A DNA stretch of 64,000 bases from an uncultured bacterium (GCA_947169285.1 CAMVPB010000005.1:545-64544), one strand, 5' to 3'. Counted from the first letter of the stretch, positions 1-63,812 are shown. A program made the numbers and translations. The notes: generated by a model not told the origin, from the letters alone.

Positions 1-1644
<1,644 letters not shown>

Positions 1645-2599: not shown

Positions 2600-2651
2600 A
2601 AAATAGAAGTCACAGTTAACAATAAAAATTGTGACTTTTTAAATGGTAAAA

Positions 2652-2875
2652 TATACTCCCACAAAGAGCATGTTTTTTTACTTTTTTATATCAGGATAAG
2701 AGGTGCGGTATCGCAACACTAGAATTTAAAGATAAATTCTAGTGTTTTTGTGACACCACTTATTTTGCACTTGCAAAATTGCTCCCACAGAGCATTTTAG
2801 TTTAATGAATCTCTTTATTTAAAAGAAATAAATGCTCCCGTTTTTGATTTTTTTAGAAAATCTGTGGGAGCAAAT
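2652..2875 (+). repeat. Copy 1 of a ~220-bp interspersed structured noncoding repeat (the 220-bp repeat family)
   Basis: Aligns with 7316..7533 (inverted), 8566..8776 and 13237..13426. It contains the ctcccacaaagagc / gctcccacagagc / tctgtgggagc motifs and a hairpin acactagaattt...aaattctagtgt followed by a T-tract. Confidence 0.8.
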
Positions 2876-3107
2876 TTTCATTTAATTATCTCTTTTTTTA
2901 TCAATTTGAGAAATATTTAGACTAGTAAAAAACAAAAGATTGTGTTATATTGTATTTAGAAATGGTATTTATTAGTTGTTCTTTTAGATATAAGTGTTCA
3001 AAATAGGCTCTTGTATCGCACCATTATGGATTAAACAAACAACAAGTTTGTTTTTTTATTTGGTATAAAATTAACATTTTAGTAAATCATATTAGTGGAG
3101 GACTAAT

Positions 3108-3536
3108 ATGGGTGAAAATATAAATGCTTTAGATGAAATACACAAAGGATCATGCATGGGTTGTGACGCTATTAGTTTTGTTTTAGATAAAGTTGAAGAT
3201 AGAGAATTTAAAAGTGAACTTGAAAGTGAGTTTAATTTTTATAAATCTATTGAAAGTAGGGTAGACAAAATTTACTCAAAGTATGATGATGGGGAACCGC
3301 ATGAAACTGGAATTATGACTAAAGCTATGACTTGGTCAGGAATTGAAATGAAAACAATGAGTGATCATAGTAATTCTAAAATAGCTGAACTTTTGCTTCA
3401 AGGTGTTAACATGGGAATAATTGAGGGAAGAAGAATACTTAATAAAAAGAAAATAAATAACGAAGTAAGTAAAATAGTTTCAGAATATGTTGAAACACAA
3501 GAAAAATTTATGGAAACACTAAAAAGATATTTATAA
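3108..3536 (+). CDS. Hypothetical protein, 142 aa
   Basis: ORF with RBS (gtggaggact) upstream. No confident family assignment. Confidence 0.45.
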   Translation: MGENINALDEIHKGSCMGCDAISFVLDKVEDREFKSELESEFNFYKSIESRVDKIYSKYDDGEPHETGIMTKAMTWSGIEMKTMSDHSNSKIAELLLQGVNMGIIEGRRILNKKKINNEVSKIVSEYVETQEKFMETLKRYL

Positions 3537-3602
3537 TATCACTATAGAAAAGTGATATTTTATTTTTTTTAAAATATGTGTTAATATAATATTGGTGATA
3601 AT

Positions 3603-3962
3603 ATGAAAAAAGGTTTTACATTAGTTGAAGTATTAGTAGTAATAGTGCTTTTGTCAATAATAATTGCAATTGCCATCCCTTCTATATCAAAAATTAGAGA
3701 GAATATAATTGACAAAGAAGAACAAACACAAATAAAAGAAATTAAATCAGCAGCATCTTTTTATGCAAGAGATGAAAAAAAATCAAACTGTTGTATAACT
3801 GTTTCTGAATTAGTATCAAAAGGATATTTAAAAGGTAATGAAGAAAGTAAAGTAATTAATCCTAAAACTCATGAAGAAATAAATGTTAAAATTTATATAG
3901 ATAACAACAAAAAAATAACATATGATTATAGTGAAACTTGTGGAAATTGTGAAAACAATTAA
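3603..3962 (+). CDS. Prepilin-type N-terminal cleavage/methylation domain protein (type IV pilin/pseudopilin-like), 119 aa
   Basis: N-terminus MKKGFTLVEVLVVIVLLSIIIAIAIPS is the classic G|FTLxE prepilin leader plus hydrophobic helix. It is a lone gene with no pilus assembly neighbours. Confidence 0.6.
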   Translation: MKKGFTLVEVLVVIVLLSIIIAIAIPSISKIRENIIDKEEQTQIKEIKSAASFYARDEKKSNCCITVSELVSKGYLKGNEESKVINPKTHEEINVKIYIDNNKKITYDYSETCGNCENN

Positions 3963-4016
3963 TATTTAACTTGCTAATTATTAAATTTTATGTTATATTA
4001 CTATTGCTTTTGAAAT

Positions 4017-4092
4017 GGCGGTATTGGTGAAGTGGTAACACGGTAGATTGTGGCTCTATTATGCGTGGGTTCGATTCCCACATACCGCCCCA
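4017..4092 (+). tRNA. tRNA-His (anticodon GTG), with the extra G-1 and encoded CCA
   Basis: A cloverleaf was read by hand. Acceptor is GCGGTAT/ATACCGC with G-1 opposite C73. Anticodon stem is GTAGA/TCTAT and the loop TTGTGGC gives anticodon GTG. The T-arm is GTGGG-TTCGATT-CCCAC. Confidence 0.85.
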
Positions 4093-4248
4093 TATTGAAA
4101 TCCCGTCGAACTTTTATAGTTTGACTTGGCATATATAAGGTTTTTCGATAGAAAAACTTTTTTTGTTGTTTATAAAAGAGTGTTTAGTAATACTAAAAAC
4201 AAATAAATTATATAAAAAACATAAAATAATGGTATAATATTAATTAAT

Positions 4249-5166
4249 TTGGAGATGGAAACTATGTATAAGACAAATATTAATTTGAATTTATATAAAA
4301 CATTTTATGATGTAGCTAAATATGGTAGTATTTCAAAAGCAGCACAGTATGGATTTACATCACAACCTGCAATAAGTAAATCAATTAAAAAACTTGAAGA
4401 AGAACTTGGAGTTAAACTATTCTATAGAAATTTAAATGGAGTAGAATTAACAGATAAAGGTAAAGAACTATTATATTTTGTTGAAAAGTCATATAGTAAT
4501 TTAGTTATAGCAGAAAGAACTATGCTAGAAACTGAAAATCTTGAAAGAGGTAAACTATCTATTGGTATGCCATCTAATATTGGGTCATTTTACTTATTTG
4601 ATAAAATAATTAATTTTCATAAAAAGTATCCTAAAATAGAAATAACAATAATAACAGGTTCAACTTCACAATTAATTAATTTACTAGATTCTCACAAAGT
4701 TGATTTTGTTATAGATACTTCTCCAATTAATATAAAAAAGAATGATGAAATTAAAATAGCAAAGTTAGATGAAGTGAGTTATTGCTTTGTTGCTAAAAAT
4801 GAAAAATATAAGAATATAACTACATTAAGTGATTTAAAAGATAAACCTTTAATATTACCAATACCAGGAACAGCTAATAGAAAAGATTTAGATGAACTAT
4901 TAATAAATAAAAAAGTAGAAATAGAAAATGTTATAAATATACATACTAGTGAAATGATAATTTCAGCTGTGAAAAAAGATTTAGGAATAGGTTATATAAT
5001 TTATAATCTTATTGAAGATGATATTAAAAATAATGAATTAATAAAATTAGATATTAAAGAAGAATTACCGACTGTTCAAATAAATATTGTTTACAACAAA
5101 AATTTCTTAACAACTGCTCCTAAGAAATTTATTGAAGATTATATAGATAATAATTTCAAATTATAG
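4249..5166 (+). CDS. LysR-family transcriptional regulator (likely true start at the Met at 4264)
   Basis: N-terminal HTH region LNLYKTFYDVAKYGSISKAAQYGFTSQPAISKSIKKLEEELGVKLFYR is typical of LysR. The C-terminal substrate-binding portion is ~300 aa. A hairpin terminator follows at 5215..5250. Confidence 0.8.
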   Translation: MEMETMYKTNINLNLYKTFYDVAKYGSISKAAQYGFTSQPAISKSIKKLEEELGVKLFYRNLNGVELTDKGKELLYFVEKSYSNLVIAERTMLETENLERGKLSIGMPSNIGSFYLFDKIINFHKKYPKIEITIITGSTSQLINLLDSHKVDFVIDTSPINIKKNDEIKIAKLDEVSYCFVAKNEKYKNITTLSDLKDKPLILPIPGTANRKDLDELLINKKVEIENVINIHTSEMIISAVKKDLGIGYIIYNLIEDDIKNNELIKLDIKEELPTVQINIVYNKNFLTTAPKKFIEDYIDNNFKL

Positions 5167-5277
5167 AATCTATATTAAAAAGTTATACCTATAATTTAAA
5201 ATAATATAAAACATGAAAAACGGATATTTGTAAAAAATATCCGTTCATTTTATAATTTATTTGAAAGGAAGAAAATT

Positions 5278-6267
5278 ATGATTAAAAATTTAGGAACATT
5301 TAAAGATTTTTGCGATGGGACTTTAAAAACAGTTTTTGATGTTGGCAATAAAAAAATAATTGAAATGTCATTATTATTTAATAAAGCAGATAAAGATGTT
5401 GTATGTGTACCAACGCATCATTTCTGTAATTTAGGATGTAAGATGTGTCATTTAACTAATAAAGGATTAAATAAAAAAATGACTCCAATAAATTCAGAAG
5501 ACTTTATGGAATGTTTATATAAGTCACTAACAAAAGATAATATAAGGAAAACTGATAAAGATAAATTGCTCATATCATTTATGGGAGTGGGGGAACCTTT
5601 ATTAAATCTTAAATTAATAGAAGAAGTTTATAAAAATGAAAATATAATAAAAGAAAAATTGGGGTATAAAGATATAGGATATGCTATTGCGACTATGATG
5701 CCTAATGATAATATTTTAAAATTAAAAGAGATGGTTTGTAGATTAAATATACCACTTAAAGTTCATTTTTCATTGCATACTCCAATTGATAATGAAAGGC
5801 GTAATTTAATACCAAGCACAAACGTTTCTGTAGAGGATGCATTAGCCTATTTAGTTAATTATAGAAATAGTTTACAATCAAATAAAGAATTGATGGAAAA
5901 ATATATTAAATTACACACTACAAATGATCCGATTGAGATTCATTATACTTTAATCAAAGGAGTAAACGATCAAAAAGAGGAATTGGCTAAATTATGCGAA
6001 TTACTACATAAGTATAATATTCCAATTAAGTTTATTAGATTTAATCCAACACAAGATATGCAAAGAAGTGAAAATGAAGAAAAATGGGTCAATGAAATTT
6101 CTAATAGTGTGCCTGGACTTAGGATTAAAACATATTCTCCACCTGGTAAAGAAGTAGGTAGTTCTTGTGGTGAATTTACAAAACATTATTATCATGAAGA
6201 AATTGAAACTGAAGCTCAAAAAGAAGAATTTGAAAAATGGAAAGTAAAACATTTAGTGCTTGAATAG
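5278..6267 (+). CDS. Radical SAM enzyme of the RlmN/Cfr family (rRNA/tRNA adenine C2/C8 methyltransferase-like), 329 aa
   Basis: It has the CNLGCKMC CxxxCxxC cluster motif, an upstream Cys in VVCVPT and a C-terminal GSSCGEF. Blocks ISFMGVGEPLLNL, HFSLHTPIDNERRNLIP, IHYTLIKGVNDQ and IKFIRFNP parallel RlmN blocks, including both mechanistic cysteines. Confidence 0.7.
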   Translation: MIKNLGTFKDFCDGTLKTVFDVGNKKIIEMSLLFNKADKDVVCVPTHHFCNLGCKMCHLTNKGLNKKMTPINSEDFMECLYKSLTKDNIRKTDKDKLLISFMGVGEPLLNLKLIEEVYKNENIIKEKLGYKDIGYAIATMMPNDNILKLKEMVCRLNIPLKVHFSLHTPIDNERRNLIPSTNVSVEDALAYLVNYRNSLQSNKELMEKYIKLHTTNDPIEIHYTLIKGVNDQKEELAKLCELLHKYNIPIKFIRFNPTQDMQRSENEEKWVNEISNSVPGLRIKTYSPPGKEVGSSCGEFTKHYYHEEIETEAQKEEFEKWKVKHLVLE

Positions 6268-6281
6268 GAGGAAAAAATAAT

Positions 6282-6680
6282 ATGAATAAAGAATATATGG
6301 AAGTAAGAGAATTTCATAAAGCGTTTAATCATCCAGTTGCTGATAAGCCAACACAATTAACGTTTGAAAGGGCTAAAAAAAGATATTTGTGGATGCTAGA
6401 AGAAATAAATGAATTTATTGAAGCCGTTAAAAATAAAGATATAGTAGAACAAGCAGATGCAATGATAGATACAATTTATTTTGCCCTTGGAACTTTAGTG
6501 GAGATGGGAATTGAACCAGATGCTTTGTTTGAAATAGTTCAAAAAGCAAATATGAGTAAATTATTTCCTGATGGCAAACCTCATTATAATGAAATGGGAA
6601 AAGTAATTAAACCACAAAATTGGGAAGATCCGCATCCCAAATTAGAGCTAACCATAAAAAATATGAATAATTCTAATTAG
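6282..6680 (+). CDS. MazG-like all-alpha nucleoside triphosphate pyrophosphohydrolase family protein, 132 aa
   Basis: Acidic helix pattern LEEINEFIEAVKNKDIVEQADAMIDTIYFALG is typical of the MazG/HisE-like NTP-PPase fold. Confidence 0.5.
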   Translation: MNKEYMEVREFHKAFNHPVADKPTQLTFERAKKRYLWMLEEINEFIEAVKNKDIVEQADAMIDTIYFALGTLVEMGIEPDALFEIVQKANMSKLFPDGKPHYNEMGKVIKPQNWEDPHPKLELTIKNMNNSN

Positions 6681-6775
6681 AAAAGATATTATAAAAAAAT
6701 AAGATACTTTAATAAAAGATTTTAAGGATTGGTTTTATTTAAAAAGATACTAAAACATAGTATAATGTTATTGAG

Positions 6776-7297
6776 ATGAGCAATATGGAAACAATAGTAA
6801 TAAACAATAACAATTTGACTGATAAAGATATTAATGAATATGGTAAAAAAGTAAGAGCAGTTTTATTTGATGAAGAAAAAATATTAATATCTTGTTATGG
6901 TGGAGTTATATTATTGCCTGGTGGAAGTATTGATAAAAATGAAACTTCAGATCAAGCAATTGTAAGAGAATTAAAAGAAGAAACAGGTATTATATATAAT
7001 ATAAAAGACTTGAAAAAGTTACTAGTTGTTAAGCATTATCAACAAAATTATCTGACTAGAAATGAATCCATTAAAAATAGATTAATAAGCACTGAATATT
7101 ATATTGGAAAATATCAAGGAATTAATTTAGATGAAACTCACATGACAGATAAAGAATTAAAAGATAACTTTAATTTGAAATTAGTAAATATAAATGAATT
7201 ACAAAATTTATTAAATAAAATAACAAATAATCCAAGAAAAAATTTTTTTGATGAAGAAATAAGAGAAGTTATTCACACTTTAACTCTTAAAAAGTAA
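6776..7297 (+). CDS. NUDIX hydrolase, 173 aa
   Basis: Nudix box GGSIDKNETSDQAIVRELKEETGI fits Gx5Ex7REUxEExGU. Confidence 0.8.
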   Translation: MSNMETIVINNNNLTDKDINEYGKKVRAVLFDEEKILISCYGGVILLPGGSIDKNETSDQAIVRELKEETGIIYNIKDLKKLLVVKHYQQNYLTRNESIKNRLISTEYYIGKYQGINLDETHMTDKELKDNFNLKLVNINELQNLLNKITNNPRKNFFDEEIREVIHTLTLKK

Positions 7298-7315
7298 TAA
7301 CATTATAAAATAATA

Positions 7316-7533
7316 TGCTCCCACAGATTTTTTAAAAAAATCAAAAATGGGAGCATTTATTTCTTTTAAATAAAGAGAATAATTAAGTTAAAATGCTTTG
7401 TGGGAGCAATTTTGCAAGTGCAAAATAAGTGGTGTCATAAAAATATAGGTATTTCCTAGAAATATTTATATTTTGACACCTCATACTTATCCTGATATAA
7501 AAAAGTAATATTTTATGTATTCTATAGGAGCAA
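7316..7533 (-). repeat. Copy 2 of the 220-bp repeat family, inverted relative to copy 1
   Basis: The reverse complement aligns with 2652..2875 over about 190 bp (gacaccacttattttgcacttgcaaaattgctcccaca...aaatctgtgggagc). The internal hairpin has a different sequence but the same position and is followed by a T-tract. Confidence 0.8.
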
Positions 7534-7555
7534 AAAAATATTATTTAAAATCTTA

Positions 7556-7609
7556 TTGAAATTAATATTTGTTTTATATATAATATTAAGACATAAGGGA
7601 GGTTTTAGG
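7556..7609 (+). promoter_or_regulatory. Conserved promoter plus RBS module (TTGAAA-17-TATAAT ... acataagggagg), duplicated at 10518..10571
   Basis: Near-identical ~50-nt sequences precede two unrelated ORFs. The six-frame track reads them as a shared fake N-terminus MKLI.VL.IILRHKGGF. Confidence 0.6.
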
Positions 7610-8353
7610 ATGTTAAAATATTTGAATTATGATAATTATAACGTAGATGAAGAACTTTTAAAAATTGAAAATTGTGAAGAAGCAGAAATAGTATTAGAAC
7701 CAAGGAATAAAAAATGTTTATTTATTTTAGGGATGCTATTTGTAAATGGAGTTAAGATAAAGATCTTGAATGAAAATGATTTGAATCTTGAAGAAACAAA
7801 TAAATCATTTTCTATGATGCCATATGTATGGAGTAAAATAGGTGATAATAGTTTTCCAGCACCTGATTATTCTAATGTAAGAACCGAAATGGATAGAAGA
7901 GTAGAAAATGTTAAAAGAATGGGTTGTAAAGTAAATAGAATAGAAAACAATCCAATAGATAATAAAATATTTTTGATTTGTCCTGTAAGAAATGCTACTG
8001 AAGAACAAAGAAAATGGATTGAAAACTTTACTAAAGAGAAATATAACAACGGATATATAATTCATGCTCCACATCTTCATACAAGACAAACGGATTTGTT
8101 TGGCGGATATGCTATATGCAAACAAAATGCAGAGGCAGTAGCTACTTCTGAAGAAATTTACATATACTATGATCAATCAAGTACAGGTAGTGTATTTGAT
8201 TTAGGAGTGGCTTATGCATTACATAAACCATTAAAAGTATTAAATAAAGAAGAAATAGTTTTTAATGAAGATGATTTCATAGATAATATTGTAAAGACTT
8301 GGCCTTATAATTTAAAGACAAAAGTAAGAACTTTATCTAAAGAAAATATGTAA
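7610..8353 (+). CDS. Hypothetical protein with C-terminal nucleoside 2-deoxyribosyltransferase-like (NDT/Rcl-like) domain, ~247 aa from internal ATG
   Basis: Motifs KIFLICPVRNATEEQ and DQSSTGSVFDLGVAYALHKPLKV resemble the NDT-family GP-loop and DxGTxFExG(Y/A)A blocks. The start is placed after the conserved promoter/RBS module. Confidence 0.5.
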   Translation: MLKYLNYDNYNVDEELLKIENCEEAEIVLEPRNKKCLFILGMLFVNGVKIKILNENDLNLEETNKSFSMMPYVWSKIGDNSFPAPDYSNVRTEMDRRVENVKRMGCKVNRIENNPIDNKIFLICPVRNATEEQRKWIENFTKEKYNNGYIIHAPHLHTRQTDLFGGYAICKQNAEAVATSEEIYIYYDQSSTGSVFDLGVAYALHKPLKVLNKEEIVFNEDDFIDNIVKTWPYNLKTKVRTLSKENM

Positions 8354-8504
8354 AGAGAATCTGCACTTATGTTTTAAAAAATTGACTTTGCAAAATCAAA
8401 AAAATATGATAATATTAGTTCAGTTAGTAATATATACTACTATTTTAAAGCATTATCTTGTTGCTCTACACAATTAAGATACGTGCTATAATGTTATTAG
8501 CGAT

Positions 8505-8565
8505 TAGTTGTATTAGCAACTTTCTTTAAAAGCAATAAGTTTTAAATCATCTTATTTATTGCTTA
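8505..8565 (+). repeat. Short palindromic repeat (agttgtattagcaact ... gcaataag-N-cttatttattgc), second copy at 14497..14557
   Basis: Direct sequence similarity between the two loci. Both lie just downstream of a gene. Confidence 0.55.
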
Positions 8566-8776
8566 CTAAAGAGCGTGTTTTTTTAACTATTTATATGAGA
8601 GCTGCGGTATCACAACACTAGAATTTGTTTGTAAATTCTAGTGTTTTTGTGACATCAATCTTATTTTGCGCTTGCAAAATTGCTCCCTAGAAATAATGTA
8701 CTTAATATTTATTGCCTTAAATACTAATGAAAATTGTTCCCAAAATGTCATTTTTTTGAAAAATGCGAGGGAGTAA
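8566..8776 (+). repeat. Copy 3 of the 220-bp repeat family
   Basis: Shares aaagagcgtgttttttt, gcggtatcacaacactagaattt...aaattctagtgtttttgtgaca, ttgcgcttgcaaaattgctccc and a gagggag right end with copies 1 and 4. Confidence 0.75.
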
Positions 8777-8875
8777 CTTTTTAACTGCTTTCCAAAATAT
8801 TTGACTTATTTTTTTGTTTACAATCATAATAAATATACTTATAATATTTTTGTAAAAAGGTGTATTATGCAAAAA

Positions 8876-8970
8876 GATAATATGCTAAAGCGCTAAATAA
8901 AGAAATTATTTATTACACTGATTTAAAAGAAGAAAATTTAGAAACTCAAATTCGAAAAAAATTAGTCTAG
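8876..8970 (+). pseudogene. Remnant 3' end of an NDT-like gene (YAKALNKEIIYYTDLKEENLETQIRKKLV*), duplicate of 11545..11640
   Basis: About 90% nucleotide identity to the 3' end of the frameshifted NDT-like gene at 11292..11637. The following attttaaagagtgttatttgatattaaaggag junction is shared as well. Confidence 0.6.
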
Positions 8971-9008
8971 ATTTTAAAGAGTGTTATTTGATATTAAAGG
9001 AGAAAATT

Positions 9009-9752
9009 ATGATGAATGTAAACAAAGAATTAATTGAGTATGTAGAAAATAATATAAAACCCATATATGTAAACAACAATTATGCTGGTCATGGTTGGGA
9101 ACATATTCAAAATGTAATAAGTCGTAGTTTTGAGTTAATGGAAAAATTCAAGTTAGAAATTAACCCTAATATGGTTTATGTTATAGCAGCATATCATGAT
9201 ATTGGTTATAAAGAAAATCCTGAAAATCATGAACAAGTATCAAGTGAAATGTTTTTACAAAATAAAGAAATTCAACATTTTTTTAGTGAAGAAGAAAATA
9301 GAATAATTGCTGAAGCTATAGTAGATCATAGAGCAAGTTTAGAATATGAAGCAAGAAGTGTCTACGGAAAATTAGTTTCCTCTGCTGATAGAGCTATTGA
9401 TGTTAATAATATGTTAGAAAGGTCAATTTCTTTTCAATATGAAAAGCATAAATTAGAAAATCCAACGATTCAAGATATTATTGAATATTCTTATAAGAAA
9501 CTATCAAGTAAATATGGAAATGGTGGATATGCTAAAATGTATTTTCAAGATGATAAATATTTAGAATATTTAAAAAAAGTGAATTTATTATTTTCAGACA
9601 AAGAAGAATTTATTAAAGCAGAGATGAATATTATTGCTAATAATTCACAATTATTACAAAAAATATATGTGAATCCAGAATTGAGAACATTATTAGAAGA
9701 TAAAGAAAAGAACATAAGTACTAAAAGAGTATATATAAAAAATAAAAAATGA
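9009..9752 (+). CDS. HD-domain metal-dependent phosphohydrolase, ~247 aa
   Basis: H...HD signature (GHGWEHIQNV ... VIAAYHDIGY). Start ATG at 9009 after RBS aaaggag; the track's TTG start at 8988 is less likely. Confidence 0.65.
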   Translation: MMNVNKELIEYVENNIKPIYVNNNYAGHGWEHIQNVISRSFELMEKFKLEINPNMVYVIAAYHDIGYKENPENHEQVSSEMFLQNKEIQHFFSEEENRIIAEAIVDHRASLEYEARSVYGKLVSSADRAIDVNNMLERSISFQYEKHKLENPTIQDIIEYSYKKLSSKYGNGGYAKMYFQDDKYLEYLKKVNLLFSDKEEFIKAEMNIIANNSQLLQKIYVNPELRTLLEDKEKNISTKRVYIKNKK

Positions 9753-9798
9753 AAACATAAATTTATTGATTATGTTAGGGTAAATATAGGAGGATTTT

Positions 9799-10503
9799 AT
9801 GAAAAAAATAACAGAGTTATTTATGGCTTATAAAAACGATTTTGCTAATAGTAATTTAAAAGATAATGAATTAATAGAGTTTGTAATGCCTTTTAACTTT
9901 TCTGATTTAAGCGATGTTGTTAATGGAAATATATTTTTAAAAAGCTATAATCAAAAAATATCAATAAAAGAATCATTAGATTTATTAGATTTATCAATAA
10001 AAAATAATAATAGGATAAGAGTGTGGACTAGTCATGTTGACCCTGATTATTATTTGTTTTTATTATTTATATGTTTTTATGTAAAGAATAAGATTGAATG
10101 TTTAGAAGTCTTTTATTCTGATGAATACAAAAGTGAATGTACAAGTACCGGAATGATGACTTCAAAAGAATTAGATAAATTATCATTGATGGGTCATAAA
10201 ATAGAAAAAAATGAAATAGAAGAATATGCTAATAAATGGGAGTCTTTAATTCAAGATGGAAGTAAAATACATATTTTCGAGAATAATGAATTAATTGGTG
10301 TGCCATATGATTATATTTATGAACAAATAATAGATTTCATAAAAAAAGAAAACAAAGTTAAAGTTGTTGAAATAGTTTTTGAATTTTCAAAAAAATATAA
10401 TATTGATGTTGATTATTTAATAAAGCAACTAATAGAAGATAAAAAGATTAAAGTATTAGAAAGCAATGAAATATTTTCTAAAATCATTGTTGGATTAAGT
10501 TAA
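9799..10503 (+). CDS. Hypothetical protein, 234 aa
   Basis: ORF with RBS (taggagga). No recognisable motif. Confidence 0.45.
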   Translation: MKKITELFMAYKNDFANSNLKDNELIEFVMPFNFSDLSDVVNGNIFLKSYNQKISIKESLDLLDLSIKNNNRIRVWTSHVDPDYYLFLLFICFYVKNKIECLEVFYSDEYKSECTSTGMMTSKELDKLSLMGHKIEKNEIEEYANKWESLIQDGSKIHIFENNELIGVPYDYIYEQIIDFIKKENKVKVVEIVFEFSKKYNIDVDYLIKQLIEDKKIKVLESNEIFSKIIVGLS

Positions 10504-10571
10504 TCTTAAATGAAATTGTATTGAAATTAATAAAAGTGTTGTGTATAATATTGAGACATAAGGGAGGATTT

Positions 10572-11189
10572 ATGGATTTTATTAAAAAAAATGAGTCTTG
10601 TGAAAAATTTTATTCTGTTGACTATGATAAAGAGAAGTTAAATGAAATTTTAGAAAAGTTAAAAAACTATAATTATACGGCAATTGGTAAAGGCGAGATG
10701 GGTGGAGTAACTAATTGGCCTGCTACAGAGAAAAATATAAAAAGAAGAGTTACATCTTTCTTTAATGCTTGTATGCATGACCAAAATGCAACATTACATC
10801 CAGAGACAATAGTGCGTCATGATGATGACTATGTTTCATATGAATATTCTTATAATAAATTACCGGATCTATATGATTATATTGATTTAATTGTAAATAC
10901 ACAAAACCCTTTTAAACATAAAAGATTGTTTAAGAATTTTAGTGATGCTTATATTTGCTTTCACTGGGATCAAATAGTATTAGAAGGATTGCTAAATTAT
11001 GCAAATTCCCCAGAATTAACAAATCATAATTCTATAGAAAATAGTGAATCAAGTAAAGAAGAGTATGATTATAAAGGATTAAATGAATTATATATAGAGA
11101 CATTAAAATGTTTCAATTTCAATTTAATAGCAGTCAAAGAATATTTAAAAGAACCAAAATCAGTGAATGTTTTATCTTTAAAAAAATAA
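10572..11189 (+). CDS. Hypothetical protein, ~205 aa (start at internal ATG after the conserved promoter/RBS module)
   Basis: Preceded by the same TTGAAA-17-TATAAT ... taagggagg module as 7610. No recognisable family. Confidence 0.45.
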   Translation: MDFIKKNESCEKFYSVDYDKEKLNEILEKLKNYNYTAIGKGEMGGVTNWPATEKNIKRRVTSFFNACMHDQNATLHPETIVRHDDDYVSYEYSYNKLPDLYDYIDLIVNTQNPFKHKRLFKNFSDAYICFHWDQIVLEGLLNYANSPELTNHNSIENSESSKEEYDYKGLNELYIETLKCFNFNLIAVKEYLKEPKSVNVLSLKK

Positions 11190-11291
11190 ATTATTTGGTC
11201 ATAGTATAAAACAAAAACTATGGCTTTTTAATTGTTATATTAAAATTAGAATCATGATATAATAAAAAAGTAATTTGAAAGTTGGTGTGAA

Positions 11292-11637
11292 ATGAAAATA
11301 ATAACAGTTTGTGGAAGTTTAAGATTTTTTAAAGAAATGATGGAAATAACTGAAAAGAAGGAATTAGAGGGTAATTGTATGTTAGTTCCAATTTATAATC
11401 CTTTAAAACCAAATAAAGATAATTATAGTGAGAAAGGATGCACTTATGTTGGATAAGATGCATAAAGAAAGAATTAAACTATCTGATGCTATTTTAGTTG
11501 TTAATGTTAATAACTATATTGGTGATAGTACTAAAAGTGAAATAGAATATGCTAAATCATTAAATAAAGAAATTATTTATTACACTGATTTAAAAGAAGA
11601 AAGCTTAGAAACTAAAATTCGAAAAAAATTAGTTTAA
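11292..11637 (+). pseudogene. Frameshifted nucleoside 2-deoxyribosyltransferase-like gene (two overlapping ORFs 11292..11457 and 11428..11637)
   Basis: N-terminal part MKIITVCGSLRFFKEM... and C-terminal part LSDAILVVNVNNYIGDSTKSEIEYAKSLNKEIIYY together fit the NDT-family pattern but lie in different frames. Confidence 0.5.
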
Positions 11638-11677
11638 ATTTTAAAGAGAGTTATTTGATATTAAAGGAGGAATTGAT

Positions 11678-12277
11678 ATGAAATTAATTTTAACATCTAG
11701 AGTGTTCGGTGATGCTATTGCAACTGAAAAAGTATTAAATGAATTAAATATGGATATTTCAAAAGCAAAAATACTTTTAATAGCAACTCCAAGATTGCCT
11801 TATGAAGGGCCAGAAAGTTCTTTTGAAAGTTTAGTTTATTGGGGATTTAAAGAAGAAAACATCGTAATATTTGATCATAATAAAGCAGAAGAATATTGTA
11901 ATTTAGATATAGATATTATTTATGTTACAGGAGGAAACACTTTTACAGGTTTAAAATTACTTAAAGAATGCAGATTTGATAAAGAAATTATTAAATATAT
12001 AAATAATGGCGTAATCTATTTAGGAAAAAGTGCTGGTTCACATATAGTATCTAAAAATATTGAACATGTTATAGGATTTGATCCAAATGAAGTAGGGTTA
12101 ACTGACTTTGAAGGGTTAGGATTATTTAATGGAATATTAGTTTGTCATTATAGTGATGAAAGAAAACCATGTTATGATAGATTATTATCAGAAAAAAAGT
12201 ATCCTGTGTATACTTTAACTGACCAAGATATGATAGTGTATGATGATAGTTTAGTAAAAAAATTAAAAAAGTATTAA
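11678..12277 (+). CDS. Peptidase S51 (dipeptidase E-like) family protein, 199 aa
   Basis: IIYVTGGNTFTGLKLL ... GVIYLGKSAGSHIV matches the S51 GGNTF / SAGS serine motif. Confidence 0.55.
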   Translation: MKLILTSRVFGDAIATEKVLNELNMDISKAKILLIATPRLPYEGPESSFESLVYWGFKEENIVIFDHNKAEEYCNLDIDIIYVTGGNTFTGLKLLKECRFDKEIIKYINNGVIYLGKSAGSHIVSKNIEHVIGFDPNEVGLTDFEGLGLFNGILVCHYSDERKPCYDRLLSEKKYPVYTLTDQDMIVYDDSLVKKLKKY

Positions 12278-12367
12278 GAGAAGATTTTACAAATAAAAAT
12301 ATTTGTGTTAATATGTGATTAGAAAAATCTTATATTTTTCTTTATGAGTTTAGCAATAGTTAAATTA

Positions 12368-12403
12368 TTGCCCCAGAAGGAAATCCGCTCGAACTTTTCG
12401 AGC
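12368..12403 (+). other. Degenerate direct repeat of the tRNA-His 3' end plus downstream hairpin (att-like); gctcgaacttttcgagc is a perfect hairpin
   Basis: gccccaGAAGGaaatccGCtcgaactttt versus gccccaTATTGaaatccCGtcgaactttt at 4087..4114 matches at about 25 of 29 positions, in the same orientation. Confidence 0.55.
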
Positions 12404-12465
12404 TTATATACAACTAATTCAGAAATGGATTAGTTTTTGGTTGTTAGAAACTATCCTAAGAAAGG

Positions 12466-12732
12466 ATGGTATTTATGGTAAATATTATTAAGCAAGAAGT
12501 TGTTATTGAAGAATCATTAAAGAAGAAGTTAAAACTAATATGTGAGTTTTCAAATACTACTTTAAAAATAATAAATGGTAGTATAAGAAAAATTGAAAAT
12601 AATAATCAAATTAGAGAAATAACTGAAGAAAATAGGAATGGATTCGATTTAATAGAAAAAGCAGAAAAAGAAATAAAATATATGGAAGGCCACAAAAAAC
12701 GCTTACAAAATAAATTATTAGTCATAGTTTAA
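12466..12732 (+). CDS. Hypothetical protein, 88 aa
   Basis: ORF with upstream RBS (aggatgg). Lysine/glutamate-rich with a coiled-coil-like composition. Confidence 0.4.
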   Translation: MVFMVNIIKQEVVIEESLKKKLKLICEFSNTTLKIINGSIRKIENNNQIREITEENRNGFDLIEKAEKEIKYMEGHKKRLQNKLLVIV

Positions 12733-12827
12733 AATATAATAAAAACTATGACTTTTTAAATGGGATATACTTGACTTTTTAAGAAAAAAGCAGTATAATA
12801 TGGCCACATTTTAAGGAGGAAATTAGA

Positions 12828-13163
12828 ATGAGAACTCGTGTACCTGATAATCCACATCCAGTACCAATGCCGGATATGGATAATTTTAGCGAAGAAGAAA
12901 TAGATGATTTGTTAATAGACAATTTTTTAAAGAAATTAGAAGTTCATTCACATACGCCTAGAAATCCGCATCCAGTACCAATGCCGGATATGGATAATTT
13001 TAGCGAAGAAGAAATAGATGATTTGTTAATAGACAATTTTTTAAAGAAATTAGAAGTTCATTCACATGCGCCTAGAAATCCGCATCCAGTACCAATGCCA
13101 TCAATAGAAACAGATTATCAATCAAAAAAAGTTAAAAGAAGAATTAGAAGATTACTTAAATAG
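12828..13163 (+). CDS. Tandem-repeat protein (repeated 38-aa unit RNPHPVPMPDMDNFSEEEIDDLLIDNFLKKLEVHSH.P), 111 aa
   Basis: ORF with RBS (aaggagga). It contains a perfect 114-bp tandem duplication. Confidence 0.5.
   Translation: MRTRVPDNPHPVPMPDMDNFSEEEIDDLLIDNFLKKLEVHSHTPRNPHPVPMPDMDNFSEEEIDDLLIDNFLKKLEVHSHAPRNPHPVPMPSIETDYQSKKVKRRIRRLLK
12852..13103 (+). repeat. Tandem direct repeat, 114-bp unit x ~2.2, near-identical copies
   Basis: Units start at 12852, 12966 and 13080. Copies are identical except for single bases (acgcct versus gcgcct). Confidence 0.85.
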
Positions 13164-13236
13164 TTGTATGTTTTGACATGTAGCAAGGTTTGAAAAAAAT
13201 CTTGCTTTTGTTTGGGACTTAGATGATCAAAAATTT

Positions 13237-13426
13237 TTGCTCCCTCGAAAAGCATTTTTTATGCTATTTTTAATATCAGGATAAGAGGTGGTATCACATT
13301 ACTAAGATTTACCCATAAATCCTAATAATTTGTGACTCCAAACTTATATTTTATGTTTTTTTGACTCAAACGCTAACAACTTTTACTCCCAAAATGACTT
13401 TTTTTTGAAAAAGTTGAGGGAGCAAA
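13237..13426 (+). repeat. Copy 4 of the 220-bp repeat family (most diverged)
   Basis: ttgctccctcgaaaagcatttttt ... atatcaggataagaggtg ... a hairpin, then ttgtgac ... gttgagggagcaaaa. The end motifs co-vary (ccctcgaa/ttgaggg here versus cccacaaag/ctgtggg in copy 1). Confidence 0.7.
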
Positions 13427-13560
13427 AAATATAAATATAATAAAAATAATTGAAGAATTTTATAAAATGAATAGTAATTTTTTCAAATTATAAGATATAA
13501 CTTTAAATTTGACTTTAAGTCTCTGCTTTGATATAATATATAGCTATTAAGAGGGGGTTT

Positions 13561-14400: not shown

Positions 14401-14496
14401 AAGGATTTTAAAAAAGATATTGATTAACACAAACCAATATTTTTTCTTTTGAAAAGACTTTGACATTTATATAATTTATGATATTATGTTTATAGA

Positions 14497-14557
14497 AATT
14501 AGTTGTATTAACAACTTTCTTTAAAGATGGTAAGTTTTAAATCATCTTATTTGTTGC
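14497..14557 (+). repeat. Second copy of the short palindromic repeat seen at 8505..8565
   Basis: ttagttgtattaacaactttctttaaa...taagttttaaatcatcttatttgttgc, compared with 8505..8565. Confidence 0.55.
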
Positions 14558-14841
14558 CCAAATAAAAAAATAATGTCGCATAATGCGACTTTTTTTATTG
14601 GGGCTATAAATAAAATTATTCTTATAAAAAAGTGTTTTTGAATTATTTTGACTATAATATATATAGAGGAGACATAATATGAATAATGGAATAAAAAATG
14701 AAACTGAAATTGTTAATAGCATAAATGGCAAGAAGTTTAATGAATTAAATTAATAATTTTTGCTTTTAAATGTAAAATTTTTAAATCTTTAATATTTTTT
14801 TAATAAAAGATAGTAAAATTATTTTTGAAAGGAAGAAAAAT

Positions 14842-29961: not shown

Positions 29962-30030
29962 TGTTCTTGTCTTTTTATTTTATATTTGATACAATGTATA
30001 TAGATGAAGAAAACTTCATATAATAAAAAG

Positions 30031-30107
30031 GACACACCTTAAAGAGTAGGTGTGCTCCGAGTTTTCGTTACACACTAGCCCTTGTTAAGGCTAGTGTGAT
30101 TTTTATT
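30031..30107 (+). ncRNA. Putative antisense RNA (type I antitoxin-like), copy 3
   Basis: Promoter aaacttcatataat. The terminator hairpin is again a different sequence (cacactagcccttgttaaggctagtgtg) plus T-tract. Confidence 0.4.
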
Positions 30108-30183
30108 TGGACAATAGTACTATAAATACTAGAGCAAACAAGAGGATGATTATTACAAAGTATGGGATTTCTTTTCTAGTCAT
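30103..30183 (-). CDS. Small hydrophobic peptide, 26 aa (MTRKEIPYFVIIILLFALVFIVLLSK), type I toxin-like paralogue
   Basis: Minus-strand ATG preceded by RBS ggaggtga. Minus-strand promoter TTGCAT-17-TAATAT retained at 30254..30282 with a diverged spacer. Confidence 0.55.
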   Translation of the reverse strand: MTRKEIPYFVIIILLFALVFIVLLSK

Positions 30184-30469
30184 AAATCATCACCTCCTCA
30201 AAATTTATAGTTTTAAGGAGCACACACTAACCTCTATTAAGATGTGTCTAAGTCATATTAACACAGTGAGTTTAGCTATGCAAATGCGTACTTTAAAGTT
30301 TTAATAATACAATAAATACATATAATTTAATTTCTGTTATATGTATTTTTTTAGTTTTAATTTATCAAATATTAAATATATACAAAATTTAATAATTTAC
30401 ACTGTAAATGTAAAATGTAAAACTAAAAAGTGCAGTTGATATATATATATATATATGGTATAATAGTCC

Positions 30470-31570
30470 ATGAAAGGTAGTGAAAATATGGAAGAAAAGA
30501 AAATGTCACCAATATTAATAGTTATACTATCAGTATTAGGTACATGTTTAGTAGGGTTTTGTGTATGGTATGGAGTAAACTATTTTAAAGATGATGTGGA
30601 GCCAGAAGGTCCAACCCCTGAAACTCCAGTTGAAGAACCAATAAACAATGTCACGGAAGATTATGTGGACGGAGAGTATCACACATACATTGTTTATTCA
30701 TCTAAAAACAGTGAAAACTATAAGAAAGTGGATTATAGCAAATTGTTTGTTTTAAAACCTTATGATGAAGCTGAAGAAGAAGTTTTAATAAGCGCTGATA
30801 ATGTAATTACTTTAAAGGGCTATCCTAATATTAAAGATAAATCATTAAAAGTAGATGAAAAAATAGTTTCTGCGTTAATTGATTCTGATTGTAGTGGTTC
30901 GATTTCAATTTATTACTTAACAGAATCTAAAAAACTATATTATGCTGATTTGTATTCAGATGAAGGCAATCATGAAGAGTTTAAAGCTAATTTAATTGAT
31001 ACTAATGTAGAAAAGATAGGATATGCAAATTTGAATAGATTTACTACTTGTGGTGGAAAAACTATTGCTTATAAAAAAGTTGGAGATGATAACAATTATA
31101 AGGCAATCGGATATTATGGTTTCGAACAAAAAAAGACAATCGTTGGGTCTAAAGATATGAAATATGAAAACTATGATGAAGCATTATACGATGGAGATTA
31201 TTCTAATATATTGGTATTATATAAGAACTATCCAAACAAAAAAATTGATGACAATTCAGTTATTTTAAAAGATTCAAAAGGAAAAGATTTATATATTAAG
31301 GGAGCATTTGTTAGTAGTGAGCAATATCAAAAGGAAAATAAGAATTATATATATTTCTTAGGTGAAGATGATTATTTATATCATTATCCATATGGATACT
31401 CTACTAAAAATGTAAAAGCAGTTAAATACAATGATTCAAAAGTTAAAAAAATAACACCTTCTAAAACGAAAGGCTGGGAACCTATTGTATTAACAATCGA
31501 ATATGAGAATGGTAAAACAGAAAAAATCAATGCAGATAGTTATGAAGGTTGTACTAATTTAGATTTATAA
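30470..31570 (+). CDS. Membrane-anchored hypothetical protein, 366 aa
   Basis: N-terminal TM segment (SPILIVILSVLGTCLVGFCVWYGV). No recognisable motif. Confidence 0.45.
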   Translation: MKGSENMEEKKMSPILIVILSVLGTCLVGFCVWYGVNYFKDDVEPEGPTPETPVEEPINNVTEDYVDGEYHTYIVYSSKNSENYKKVDYSKLFVLKPYDEAEEEVLISADNVITLKGYPNIKDKSLKVDEKIVSALIDSDCSGSISIYYLTESKKLYYADLYSDEGNHEEFKANLIDTNVEKIGYANLNRFTTCGGKTIAYKKVGDDNNYKAIGYYGFEQKKTIVGSKDMKYENYDEALYDGDYSNILVLYKNYPNKKIDDNSVILKDSKGKDLYIKGAFVSSEQYQKENKNYIYFLGEDDYLYHYPYGYSTKNVKAVKYNDSKVKKITPSKTKGWEPIVLTIEYENGKTEKINADSYEGCTNLDL

Positions 31571-62235: not shown

Positions 62236-62350
62236 TCGAAGGCTCTAAAGAATTAGTCCACGGACTAATTGTATGCTCTGCGTACAATTATCCTAGGGGG
62301 TTAGAGTTTTTGACAATAATAAATTATTCAAAAAAGAAAGGGGATTTTAT

Positions 62351-63739
62351 ATGAGTGATTTATCTTATTCTTTACATTTAGGAAGTGATAAGAATAGAAA
62401 AAATATTTCTAGATCAAATAATAATTTAAGTAATACTACATCATTATCTAATAATGCTATTCAAAATAAAAGACAACTATCAAAAGTGGATAATCATAAT
62501 GCAAGAAAGTATGATAATGATACTGATAAAATATCTATATTGAAAGGTACTAATTCAGTATACAATGATGTTGAAAAATTATATAAAGATATATTTGATA
62601 AATCTAGAATAGAATATAACAAAAAACAAACTAGACCAAGTAGAATGATAGATAATTATTTTGATAAGATATCTAATGATGAAAAAAGAGATCTTGCTTG
62701 TGAAATAATAATTGAACTTGGAGATAAAGATTTTTGGGAAGATAAAGATACTTTCTATAAAGCAAAAATGGAAGAAGTTTTTGAAAAGCAAATATCAGAT
62801 TTAGAAAAATTGGTTCCTAATTTTAAAATAGCAAATGCAATAGTTCATTATGATGAAACTAGTCCACATTTACATATAGTAGGAGTTCCAATTAAAGAAG
62901 GAAATAAAAATGGTATGTCACTTCAAGTTGGTAAGTCTGATGTATTTACAAAAGAGTCATTAGCTGATATTCAATTGAATATGAGAGACTTGTGTATCCA
63001 AAAGTTTAACGAAGTATATCAAACTAATTATGAGTTAAAAGAGAAAGTATTAGGAAGAAATAAAGATATACATGTTATGGATATGGTAGACTATAAAGAA
63101 ACTATGAAAGAAATAGAAACAAATAGACAAAGTATTAAAAAGACAACTAATTCTATAAATGAAATAAAAGAACAATCAAAAGAAATAAAAAATATATTAG
63201 AAAGTTTAGATTCTAACTTATTAAATTATAAATTATCTAAAAGAGATAAATATAAAATAGAAAAGTATGTTAATGAAATGAATAAGTTAAATGAACAATA
63301 TGAAGAATTATTTAAAATATCTTCATCTATTCAAGCAATTAAAAGTAATAATGATGAATTAAAATCTAGTTATAAACATGAGAAATTTCAAAATACAGTT
63401 TTAACTAGTCAATTAATGAGTTTGCATGATAAAGTTAGTAATGAAAATGATAGAAATGCAATATTAGAATATAAACTCGAAGAAGCAAAAGATAATAAAT
63501 TATTATTTATTAAATCTTTAAGTGAAGCAATACATAATAATTCAAAAGATAAGTTTCCTAGAGAATTTGCTAAAAGATTATATGAGAAAAGAGTATTAAA
63601 TAGATCAGAATATAGATGTATTATTGATACTAATTTATCATTTTTCAATCCAAGTGAAGTAGAAGCAGTATTACATAAATTAAATCGAGAAGCAGAACAA
63701 GCAGCAGAAGAATTTTATAATATGCATAGTAGTTTATGA
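62351..63739 (+). CDS. MobV-family (Pre/Mob) plasmid recombination/mobilisation relaxase, 462 aa
   Basis: Motif VHYDETSPHLHIVGVP fits HxDE...PHxH. The C-terminal half is a long coiled coil. Confidence 0.65.
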   Translation: MSDLSYSLHLGSDKNRKNISRSNNNLSNTTSLSNNAIQNKRQLSKVDNHNARKYDNDTDKISILKGTNSVYNDVEKLYKDIFDKSRIEYNKKQTRPSRMIDNYFDKISNDEKRDLACEIIIELGDKDFWEDKDTFYKAKMEEVFEKQISDLEKLVPNFKIANAIVHYDETSPHLHIVGVPIKEGNKNGMSLQVGKSDVFTKESLADIQLNMRDLCIQKFNEVYQTNYELKEKVLGRNKDIHVMDMVDYKETMKEIETNRQSIKKTTNSINEIKEQSKEIKNILESLDSNLLNYKLSKRDKYKIEKYVNEMNKLNEQYEELFKISSSIQAIKSNNDELKSSYKHEKFQNTVLTSQLMSLHDKVSNENDRNAILEYKLEEAKDNKLLFIKSLSEAIHNNSKDKFPREFAKRLYEKRVLNRSEYRCIIDTNLSFFNPSEVEAVLHKLNREAEQAAEEFYNMHSSL

Positions 63740-63812
63740 TGTTTAATTTGACATATTGTATCAAATATGTTATAATATAATCACATTTTAAAAAGGGGGA
63801 GGAATATTTAAA

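Follow-up and report, generated by a model that had tools for sequence, protein, structure and literature searches.

A structured intergenic repeat of uncultured AT-rich Firmicutes as a probable origin-of-transfer family, with orphan copies in a recombinase-bearing island

A 64,000-nucleotide stretch of DNA from an uncultured bacterium (GCA_947169285.1, CAMVPB010000005.1:545-64544; 24.8% GC), referred to here at its full length as the window, begins with a genomic island, the left end of which falls outside the window, carrying a large serine recombinase gene at its left edge. The cargo of this island includes genes for a LysR regulator, a radical SAM protein, MazG-like and NUDIX proteins, a nucleoside deoxyribosyltransferase-like protein and an HD protein, as well as a tRNA-His gene. 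Between co-directional genes of the island sit four copies of a 235-bp non-coding repeat, the subject of the present study. When a profile of the four copies was used to search the 64 kb with nhmmer, matches were obtained at 2637-2895 (+), 7292-7551 (-), 8540-8800 (+) and 13216-13447 (+), with E values of 5e-71 to 3e-45, and nowhere else, confirming the four copies reported in an earlier reading of the sequence alone (the sequence-only reading). Likewise, a degenerate pattern describing the right end of the repeat matched only the four copy sites in the window, with 0 matches expected from shuffles, while folding of both strands of a copy was far above that of shuffled sequences (z scores of -6.3 and -9.7). 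As detailed below, the repeat is probably an undescribed family of origins of transfer (oriT) of a conjugative element of uncultured AT-rich Firmicutes, with the window copies being orphans in a hitcher island.

The strand termed functional here is the reverse complement of the orientation adopted in the sequence-only reading. Read 5' to 3' on this strand, the repeat comprises an end motif (X), two small A/U hairpins and a second GGGAGC motif, a motif designated X', a palindrome (P4), the trinucleotide AAG, a hairpin (P5), CTTATCCTGATA, a short hairpin and, finally, a motif designated X''. X, which reads TGCTCCCACAG in most copies, pairs with X' (CTGTGGGAGCA), thereby closing a stem domain. 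P4 is an invariant 18-nt palindrome (ATTTTGCAAGTGCAAAAT, i.e., ATTTTGC-AAGT-GCAAAAT), and P5 is a 45-55-nt hairpin of variable sequence. Located 14-15 nt 3' of P5 is the invariant CTTATCCTG^ATA (the caret marking the predicted cut), which contains TATCCTG. X'' is a further GGGAGC-type motif; in many copies, X and X'' together form terminal inverted repeats of 12 bp (TGCTCCCACAGA). Two window copies, c1 and c2, look intact, while c3 lacks the nick motif and c4 lacks the palindrome (Table 1). The blocks named in the sequence-only reading, namely, atatcaggataag, the hairpin, tttttgtgacacc, ttgcacttgcaa and the GGGAGC end, were all recognized, although c3 lacks most of atatcaggataag and c4 lacks both ttgcacttgcaa and the internal motif. 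The same reading held that no open reading frame (ORF) lies within the repeat; a mechanically called 51-residue ORF (8717-8872, -) does overlap c3, yet nothing suggests this to be a gene. Copy c1 is a mosaic, with its P5 half resembling c3-type copies and its X to X' half resembling c2-type copies. In turn, c2 shares 86.5% identity over 327 nt with a copy found in the backbone of an integrative and conjugative element (ICE; contig L029), a match that includes the promoter module 3' of c2.

A scan of metagenomes using a 22-mer around ttgcacttgcaa as query revealed 16 contigs of 23-27% GC carrying 19 more copies, with three contigs containing two copies each. A blastn search of phage and plasmid collections with a copy gave no match, as did a search of viral contigs with the right-end pattern, while two further viral scans returned nothing real. 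In 185,579 species-representative genomes, the same pattern was matched 16 times, in each case by chance and with similarity confined to the pattern itself. The repeat is not a known Rfam family, given that no match at gathering score was obtained in the window or in 9 loci, with only chance-level matches appearing when E values up to 10 were allowed. In one set of copies (those in L025, at 1148-1402, for example, and in L026, L030, L023 and L036), the 5' end is distinct (ATATCCCAC...) and lies downstream of a terminator hairpin. These copies, which may or may not be orphan oriTs, are followed by 0.6-1 kb free of ORFs in what is apparently a chromosomal setting, with gyrB in L025 and a tRNA gene in L036.

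A covariance model of the P4-P5 region was built and 22 distinct copies were aligned to it. This alignment was used instead of a plain MAFFT alignment of all types, for which RNAalifold returned a near-zero consensus, the hairpin arms being out of register. In P5, changes on both sides were seen in 13 of 30 pairs, with 91.8% of cells being paired. This level of covariation was reached by 0 of 500 shuffles, while slid controls were paired in 42-55% of cells. One pair, for instance, is G-C in nine copies, G.U (G.T) in eight and A-U (A-T) in five. The claim made from the sequence that the hairpin varies between copies yet pairs in each is thus borne out. As for P4, its sequence never varies and so carries no information on pairing. 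Covariation of the ends, also noted earlier, is real, with X and X' appearing as CCCACAG:CTGTGGG, CCTATGG:CCATAGG, TTCCTA:TAGGAA, CCCAAAA:TTTTGGG or CCCAT:ATGGG (pairing P1). The consistent partner of the X end is, however, the internal X', adjoining ttgcacttgcaaaatt, rather than the left-end motif of the sequence-only reading. The latter matches in some copies, but X'' and X differ in type in L033b, L021a and L035b.

When folded as single-stranded DNA, the functional strand forms both P4 and P5, with the nick motif remaining unpaired 3' of P5. With RNA parameters, the functional strand is the more stable in 19 of 20 copies (summed, -1203 versus -1072 kcal/mol, or about 6.5 kcal/mol each), and G.T pairs in P5 on this strand outnumber A.C pairs by 60 to 31, a strand bias that lends modest support to an oriT acting through this strand. 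The greater stability with RNA parameters would also fit an element acting as RNA, serving as the 3' untranslated region or terminator of the upstream gene, perhaps with processing or antitermination as in Tn916 canT, and leading into the promoter region of the downstream gene. Structured antiterminator RNAs are known in ICEs, in most copies the X end lies against the stop codon of a gene in the same orientation (encoding M23, recombinase, SSB-like or NUDIX proteins), and in c2-type copies, X and the near GGGAGC form a hairpin followed by a U-rich run. This run is not conserved across types, however, every gene flanking c1, c4 or a copy of the L025 group runs antisense to that copy, and in L042, a separate strong hairpin stands between the stop codon and the element. 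Nor was any Rfam match above chance level seen even at E up to 10. Moreover, the two invariant blocks are not accounted for by pairing; rather than pairing partners, they are a nick consensus and a palindrome, and the variable hairpin follows the clade of a DNA-binding accessory protein, as described below. With the element being found in both orientations relative to genes and no conserved promoter preceding the copies, a folded RNA, offered in the sequence-only reading, is an improbable account of the main function. Terminator activity of the 5' domain could nonetheless be a side function compatible with an oriT. The other suggestion of that reading, a structured recombination site, comes close to the interpretation favored here, as an oriT is cleaved and rejoined on one strand by a relaxase.

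The gene neighborhood of the element in ICEs points to such a role. Contigs L028, L029 and L034 share the gene order VirB4-like ATPase, small gene, M23 hydrolase, element, variable gene, 55-residue protein, 74-105-residue protein, 420-residue relaxase (5620-6885 in L029) and VirD4-type coupling protein, with the L029 backbone ending in a serine recombinase gene. The two small proteins upstream of the relaxase, without family match, were read by eye as putative ribbon-helix-helix (RHH) proteins, and are termed RHH1 and RHH2, respectively. As a control for bias, contigs were fetched via M23 homologues only (three clusters, 64-79% identity), and not via the repeat. In eight of eight contigs so obtained (L037-L044; three distinct sequences), the element directly follows the M23 gene and is co-oriented with it. 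These pattern-independent copies retain P4 and CTTATCCTGATA without change, while X, X' and P5 are altered with compensation. Hence, in 11 ICE contigs (L028, L029, L034 and L037-L044), the element follows the last type IV secretion gene and precedes two RHH genes and a gene encoding a MobA/VirD2-type relaxase. Going upstream from the relaxase operon in these 11 contigs, moreover, the element lies in the first large stretch between genes, although not in the window, where there is no such relaxase. This is the usual place of an oriT (bioRxiv 10.64898/2026.01.13.699239). L042-L044 are without a cargo gene, such that only about 110 nt separate the element from the downstream gene for the 55-residue protein.

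The slot between the element and the relaxosome genes differs by ICE (L028, 1936-2838; L029, 7475-7867; L034, 4107-5945; L037, 7117-8895; L041, 7129-8910). It contains sequences encoding DUF5655, a 130-residue protein, an AbiA-like RT-HEPN protein or an AAA_15/AAA_21 ATPase, and is empty in L042-L044. As read from these contigs, the slot is a cargo hot spot at the predicted nick.

This fixed position also bears on the possibility that the repeat is a non-autonomous intergenic element, akin to a miniature inverted-repeat transposable element (MITE) or to BOX, with terminal inverted repeats bound by a transposase encoded elsewhere. The 12-bp inverted repeat at both ends of many copies, the several copies per locus, in both orientations and always intergenic, and the modular mosaic build, as in BOX elements, would all fit. 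Yet the element occupies an orthologous position in ICE backbones that have diverged to 64-79% protein identity and co-varies with a neighboring protein. Furthermore, inspection of 13 pairs of ends in the alignment revealed no target-site duplication, neither an empty site nor a transposase-bearing parent was found among 29 loci, and the search with the right-end pattern detected no copy of the element in the 185,579 species-representative genomes. The end covaries with an internal motif and not with the other terminus, and the ends of L033b, L021a and L035b are of unlike types. Mobility of this sort is accordingly considered quite unlikely, and the argument of the sequence-only reading against a transposase-bound inverted repeat is supported.

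An oriT is also suggested by the second invariant block. Of the 22 distinct copies, 21 share an unchanged CTTATCCTGAT, with TATCCTG inside it, and these include three lineages reached independently of the repeat. In the ICE loci, the nick motif is the only intergenic YATCCTG and, in 12 kb of L037, the only YATCCTG of any kind. The consensus nick site of MOBP systems is 5'-(C/T)ATCCTG(C/T)-3' with an inverted repeat immediately 5', ATCCTG is needed for cleavage by RP4 TraI, Agrobacterium VirD2 and H. pylori Tfs4 VirD2, and the oriT is usually intergenic and upstream of the relaxase gene (PMC3772185). In the element, the ATCCTG core is preceded by a pyrimidine, and P5 provides a variable inverted repeat ending 14-15 nt 5' of the predicted cut. 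TATCCTG, the 5' hairpin and the position upstream of the relaxase gene thus agree with this description, except for the last base of the consensus, which is A. The ICE relaxase itself matches Pfam PF03432 (MobA/VirD2 nuclease) at 32 bits, with the cut-off being 24.6, and contains the histidine motif HTNTSHPHFH; a sequence-based comparison with solved relaxase structures gave no match.

The variable hairpin, in turn, tracks one of the accessory proteins. In seven ICE lineages, RHH2 falls into two clades, one short (71-77 residues; L028, L034 and L041) and the other long (96-105 residues; L029, L021, L037 and L042). Short-RHH2 lineages carry P5 stems of the type GATACCAC/GTGGTATC, while long-RHH2 lineages carry GGTGTCA/TGA(C/T)ACC. 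Indeed, the M23 proteins of L028 and L042 are 96% identical, yet both the RHH2 clade and the P5 type differ, indicating a module boundary between the M23 gene and the element, with the element traveling with the mobilization module. RHH1 (55 residues) is 84-89% identical across all lineages, as compared to 60-72% for the relaxase, a degree of conservation that parallels that of the invariant palindrome and nick block.

Some of these traits would also suit another single-stranded DNA signal of a conjugative element, be it a single-strand origin (sso) priming the complementary strand or an Frpo-like promoter serving the adjoining cargo gene. The size, non-coding nature and strong folding of the repeat fit both, as do the setting in ICEs or mobilizable islands with SSB genes, the strand bias in wobble pairs and the variable cargo gene that follows the element in ICEs. 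In addition, c2-type copies present TTGACA-17-TGATATAAA on the functional strand, with the -35 box within P5. This arrangement is confined to c2-type copies, however, the conserved part being CTTATCCTGAT instead. The -10-like box is GATATTTAAA in L037 and L041 and TAGAAA or TAAAAA in other copies, the last T being missing throughout. Both sso and Frpo are orientation-specific, whereas the element is found in both orientations relative to genes; no plasmid similarity was seen by blastn, hence none to known plasmid sso's; and neither predicts a hairpin that tracks the RHH2 clade. Such a function is thus thought unlikely. A separate candidate, CTTATCCTGATATAAA as an extended -10 promoter, was rejected, as the A-run is not conserved in the pattern-independent copies. 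Integron attC, retron, CRISPR, IS200/IS605 omega-RNA, bridge RNA, DnaA box, CodY and cre sites were considered and dropped, as the defining neighbors or motif fit were wanting, although no tool-based search for any of them was made.

In the oriT interpretation, the ICE-encoded MobA/VirD2-type relaxase, encoded downstream, would cut after TATCCTG. The highly conserved RHH1 would probably bind the invariant palindrome P4, while the variable RHH2 would bind the variable hairpin P5. The nicked strand would be transferred 5' to 3', with P5, refolded on the transferred strand, marking the site of the closing cut. Orphan oriTs such as those of the window could then allow the island, or pieces of it, to be mobilized in trans by a resident ICE.

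Several points weigh against this interpretation. The relaxase is only distantly MOBP-like, its best NCBIfam matches, MobP3 and MobP2, being far below cut-offs. The cut is followed by A in every copy, rather than by C or T, and the 14-15 nt between hairpin and nick are longer than the 8 nt of RP4. The relaxase genes, lying 3' of the nick, would enter the recipient first, unlike in IncP or F plasmids. With DNA parameters, both strands fold about equally, so that the difference between strands does little to favor a DNA form, and the X to X' domain of about 95 nt is assigned no role in the oriT model. The invariance of the palindrome is partly circular, since the 16 metagenome loci were found by a pattern inside it, the unbiased lineages being only L037, L041 and L042. 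Four copies in 11 kb, in both orientations and with pairs flanking single genes, are unusual for oriTs and call for the assumption of accretion and recombination.

Turning to the window, tblastn with the cognate relaxase, RHH proteins, coupling protein, VirB4 and M23 hydrolase of the ICE found none of these in the 64 kb. A MobV relaxase gene at 62351-63739 belongs to a second island (tRNA-Met gene, small ORF, recombinase, MobV). With no homologue of the ICE relaxosome or secretion apparatus in the window, the four copies are regarded as orphans. Integrated islands that possess only an oriT and hitch on ICEs have been described as the iOriT class (Ares-Arroyo et al., bioRxiv 10.64898/2026.01.13.699239). 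The make-up of the window island, with a recombinase and a predicted oriT but neither cognate relaxase nor mating-pore genes, corresponds to that of this class. The array most likely arose as several mobilizable islands accreted and were partly deleted, with exchange between copies. Such exchange may have been homologous, relaxase-mediated or recombinase-mediated. L021b and c4 break at or next to P4, and one or two genes are bracketed by a c2-type and an inverted c3-type copy at three loci, namely, the window (c2/c3), L033 and L035. The sequence-only description of the copies as separating gene modules is therefore apt as a description, yet is better explained by accreted and decayed mobilizable islands and by cargo slots adjoining the oriT.

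Alternatively, albeit with low probability, the orphan copies may be working borders of a conjugation-coupled cassette system rather than passive relics. In such a system, the relaxase would start at one copy and end at the next, as does VirD2 at T-DNA borders, or would recombine two copies, such that modules between copies could be excised, transferred, inverted or swapped. This would explain the mosaic breakpoints at the conserved core, the variable cargo slot after the nick and the cassettes between inverted copies, the orientation of which with respect to the recombinase is reversed between L033 and L035.

Another possibility is that the repeat is the attachment or crossover site of the large serine recombinase, with TTTTGCA-CT-TGCAAAA as core, bounding exchangeable or invertible cassettes. 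The recombinase gene, in L033 and L035 a homologue of that of the window, is directly followed by the element in these two contigs, with about 100 nt between gene and element in L021. The invariant palindrome has an asymmetric central dinucleotide, mosaic breakpoints fall at or near it, and the cassette between inverted copies is oppositely oriented relative to the recombinase in L033 and L035. In ICE backbones, however, the element is at least 6 kb from the recombinase gene and instead beside the relaxase operon. Serine recombinase sites, moreover, are about 40-50 bp long and have no need of a 235-bp structured region, the ATCCTG block and the link to RHH2 are left unexplained, and breakpoints at the core are equally expected from homologous or relaxase-mediated exchange. 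A recombinase site is accordingly deemed highly improbable, and an oriT remains the preferred interpretation of the repeat.

Table 1. Coordinates of the repeat copies, their parts and associated features in the window. For copies and their parts, the strand given is the functional strand; the caret marks the predicted cut.
Feature	Position	Strand	Remarks
Large serine recombinase gene	1-1644	+	5' end outside the window; left edge of the island with the four copies
Copy c1	2637-2872	-	Complete
c1 X'' 	2654-2664	-	
c1 nick motif TATCCTG^A	2691-2698	-	
c1 hairpin P5	2707-2757	-	
c1 palindrome P4	2762-2779	-	
c1 X'	2780-2790	-	
c1 near GGGAGCA	2833-2839	-	
c1 X end, TGCTCCCACAG	2862-2872	-	
Copy c2	7316-7550	+	Complete
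c2 X	7316-7326	+	
c2 near GGGAGCA	7349-7355	+	
c2 X'	7398-7408	+	
c2 P4	7409-7426	+	
c2 P5	7431-7480	+	
c2 nick motif TATCCTG^A	7488-7495	+	Predicted cleavage between 7494 and 7495
c2 X''	7522-7532	+	
Promoter TTGAAA-17-TATAAT and ribosome-binding module	7537-7607	+	Follows c2; attached to c2-type copies in L029, L032 and L035
Copy c3	8538-8775	-	Defective; ATCCTG nick motif lost by 6-nt deletion
c3 P5	8606-8656	-	
c3 P4	8663-8680	-	One loop change (AAGC)
c3 X'	8681-8691	-	
c3 X	8765-8775	-	
Short stretch at the c3 X end	8777-8815	-	By eye, like the 3' end and flank of the element-abutting recombinase gene of L035
Second copy of the c2-adjoining promoter module	10502-10572		Element-free
Copy c4	13217-13424	-	Partial; deletion of about 36 nt took out P4 and X'
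c4 X''	13238-13248	-	
c4 nick motif TATCCTG^A	13276-13283	-	
c4 P5	13290-13339	-	
c4 X	13414-13424	-	
Nick-spanning stretch (predicted cut)			ACCTCATACTTATCCTGATATAAA

Examination of the remainder of the window revealed additional features. The short stretch at the X end of c3 (Table 1) looks like the fossil of a junction in which a recombinase gene was followed by the element. Each of the two serine recombinase genes is followed, directly after its stop codon, by a conserved unit (1648-1715 and 62240-62310, as well as 232-308 of L021) that comprises two short perfect hairpins (e.g., CTAAGGA..TCCTTAG and ATCTTGTA..TACAAGAT) followed by TAGGGGGTTA. The second such unit, at 62240-62310, is found just upstream of the MobV gene and could be the MobV oriT or a recombinase site. 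A segment at 1819-1883, upstream of the gene at 1883-2599, resembles the region downstream of MobV at 63741-63821, with further relatives at 1151-1223 of L021 and 1360-1439 of L024. Given this likeness, the first island looks to be derived from an element of the second-island type that lost its MobV relaxase. The C-terminus of MobV (63542-63733) is weakly similar (E 0.003-0.005) to that of the MOBP-like ICE relaxases, a likeness that could reflect a shared region for docking to the coupling protein.

A PADLOC scan of the island cargo detected no convincing defense system. The protein encoded at 7610-8353, between c2 and c3, belongs to a widespread, conserved family (more than 200 clusters at 64-89% identity, from metagenome-assembled genomes (MAGs) labeled Clostridia, Bacilli and Dojkabacteria), for which the sole annotation is a weak Nuc_deoxyrib_tr match, with some relatives being fused to PF24585 or PF02805. 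A link between the element and this bracketed gene was rejected, as homologues occur in other AT-rich genomes in unrelated contexts without the element nearby. A frameshift apparently splits the small nucleoside deoxyribosyltransferase-like gene at 11292-11637 into two ORFs (11292-11456 and 11428-11637). The 3' end of this gene, together with the sequence that follows it, recurs with 90% identity ahead of the HD-domain gene (8873-9010), a duplication that would be further evidence of module reshuffling. ORF 12828-13163 contains a 114-nt tandem duplication in perfect register (12849-13076; 98% identical) that generates two 38-residue units.

Other non-coding repeats were also noted. Members of a second family, of about 330 nt, are found in tandem upstream of aspS (23798-24126 and 24263-24594) and upstream of the gene at 30470-31570 (30005-30289). 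No Rfam match was obtained for this family; a piece related to it lies at 1394-1470 of L030, downstream of an oriT-like copy. A separate, sub-threshold T-box (48 bits, E 2e-8) is seen at 24728-24880. In addition, a unit of 79 nt, starting like a promoter and containing two small hairpins, is present at 8484-8562 and 14479-14557 (84% identical). The first copy runs straight into c3, while the second is followed by a clean terminator (14575-14589); this unit could be a small RNA gene.

As for the host, the sequence-only reading had looked to Clostridium for relatives. The window SerRS, with relatives of 93-100% identity only in metagenome contigs, is about 75% identical to MAG proteins labeled Bacilli, Mollicutes or Erysipelotrichaceae, and such kinship is therefore not supported.

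Very few integrative elements have a known origin of transfer, and hardly any of these come from uncultured low-GC bacteria of the gut or rumen. Should the proposed assignment be correct, a recognizable oriT family, described by a covariance model and a nick motif, would make it possible to annotate ICEs, as well as hitcher islands without relaxase, in such metagenomes. The element would also offer a natural case of co-variation between an oriT hairpin and an accessory protein, which sets mobilization specificity. If the multi-copy array is functional, it would further show how cargo modules get shuffled at an oriT.

When considered alongside known systems, the element is reminiscent of the BOX (Streptococcus pneumoniae), Correia and bcr repeats in being modular, highly folded, multi-copy and intergenic, with complementary ends. 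Those repeats are, however, scattered over entire genomes, with tens to hundreds of copies in each, and have no tie to a relaxase operon, whereas the element is confined to mobile islands, assumes a fixed backbone position and contains a nick-site consensus. With sso sequences (ssoA, ssoU, ssoT and sso1 of ICEBs1) and Frpo, the element shares a non-coding region of 150-350 nt that folds on one strand and a home in conjugative or rolling-circle elements. Yet these signals are strictly orientation-specific and recruit RNA polymerase or primase, while the core of the element is a relaxase nick consensus, with no conserved -35/-10 pair.

Closer parallels are offered by the MOBP oriTs, such as those served by RP4/R751 TraI, by VirD2 at the Ti T-DNA borders and by H. 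pylori tfs4 VirD2, where an ATCCTG core with a 5' pyrimidine and an inverted repeat 5' on the nicked strand are likewise found (PMC3772185). As in those systems, the element is intergenic and upstream of a gene for a relaxase with a MobA/VirD2 domain, with small accessory DNA-binding proteins putatively encoded alongside. T-DNA borders contain CAGGATA, and the opposite strand of the element reads CAGGATA. At the same time, the element differs in having A after the predicted cut, a longer hairpin spacing and two additional parts, namely, an invariant palindrome and a stem-closed domain of 95 nt. It also resides in a low-GC host of Gram-positive type, with a remotely related relaxase whose genes lie 3' of the nick, and shows no sequence similarity past the hexamer region.

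Finally, like iOriT islands and the staphylococcal oriT mimics, the window island is integrated, has an integrase-type recombinase and a predicted oriT resembling that of a conjugative helper, and is without a cognate relaxase or mating-pore genes, with helper and hitcher sharing little besides the oriT. It departs from those islands in its four copies, two of them damaged and in both orientations, and in its large serine recombinase; the hosts here, moreover, are uncultured Bacillota of rumen or gut type, rather than the six nosocomial species of the iOriT survey. The concerted variation of P5 and RHH2 likewise has a counterpart among staphylococci, where the oriT hairpin and an accessory protein co-vary in the pWBG749 family.

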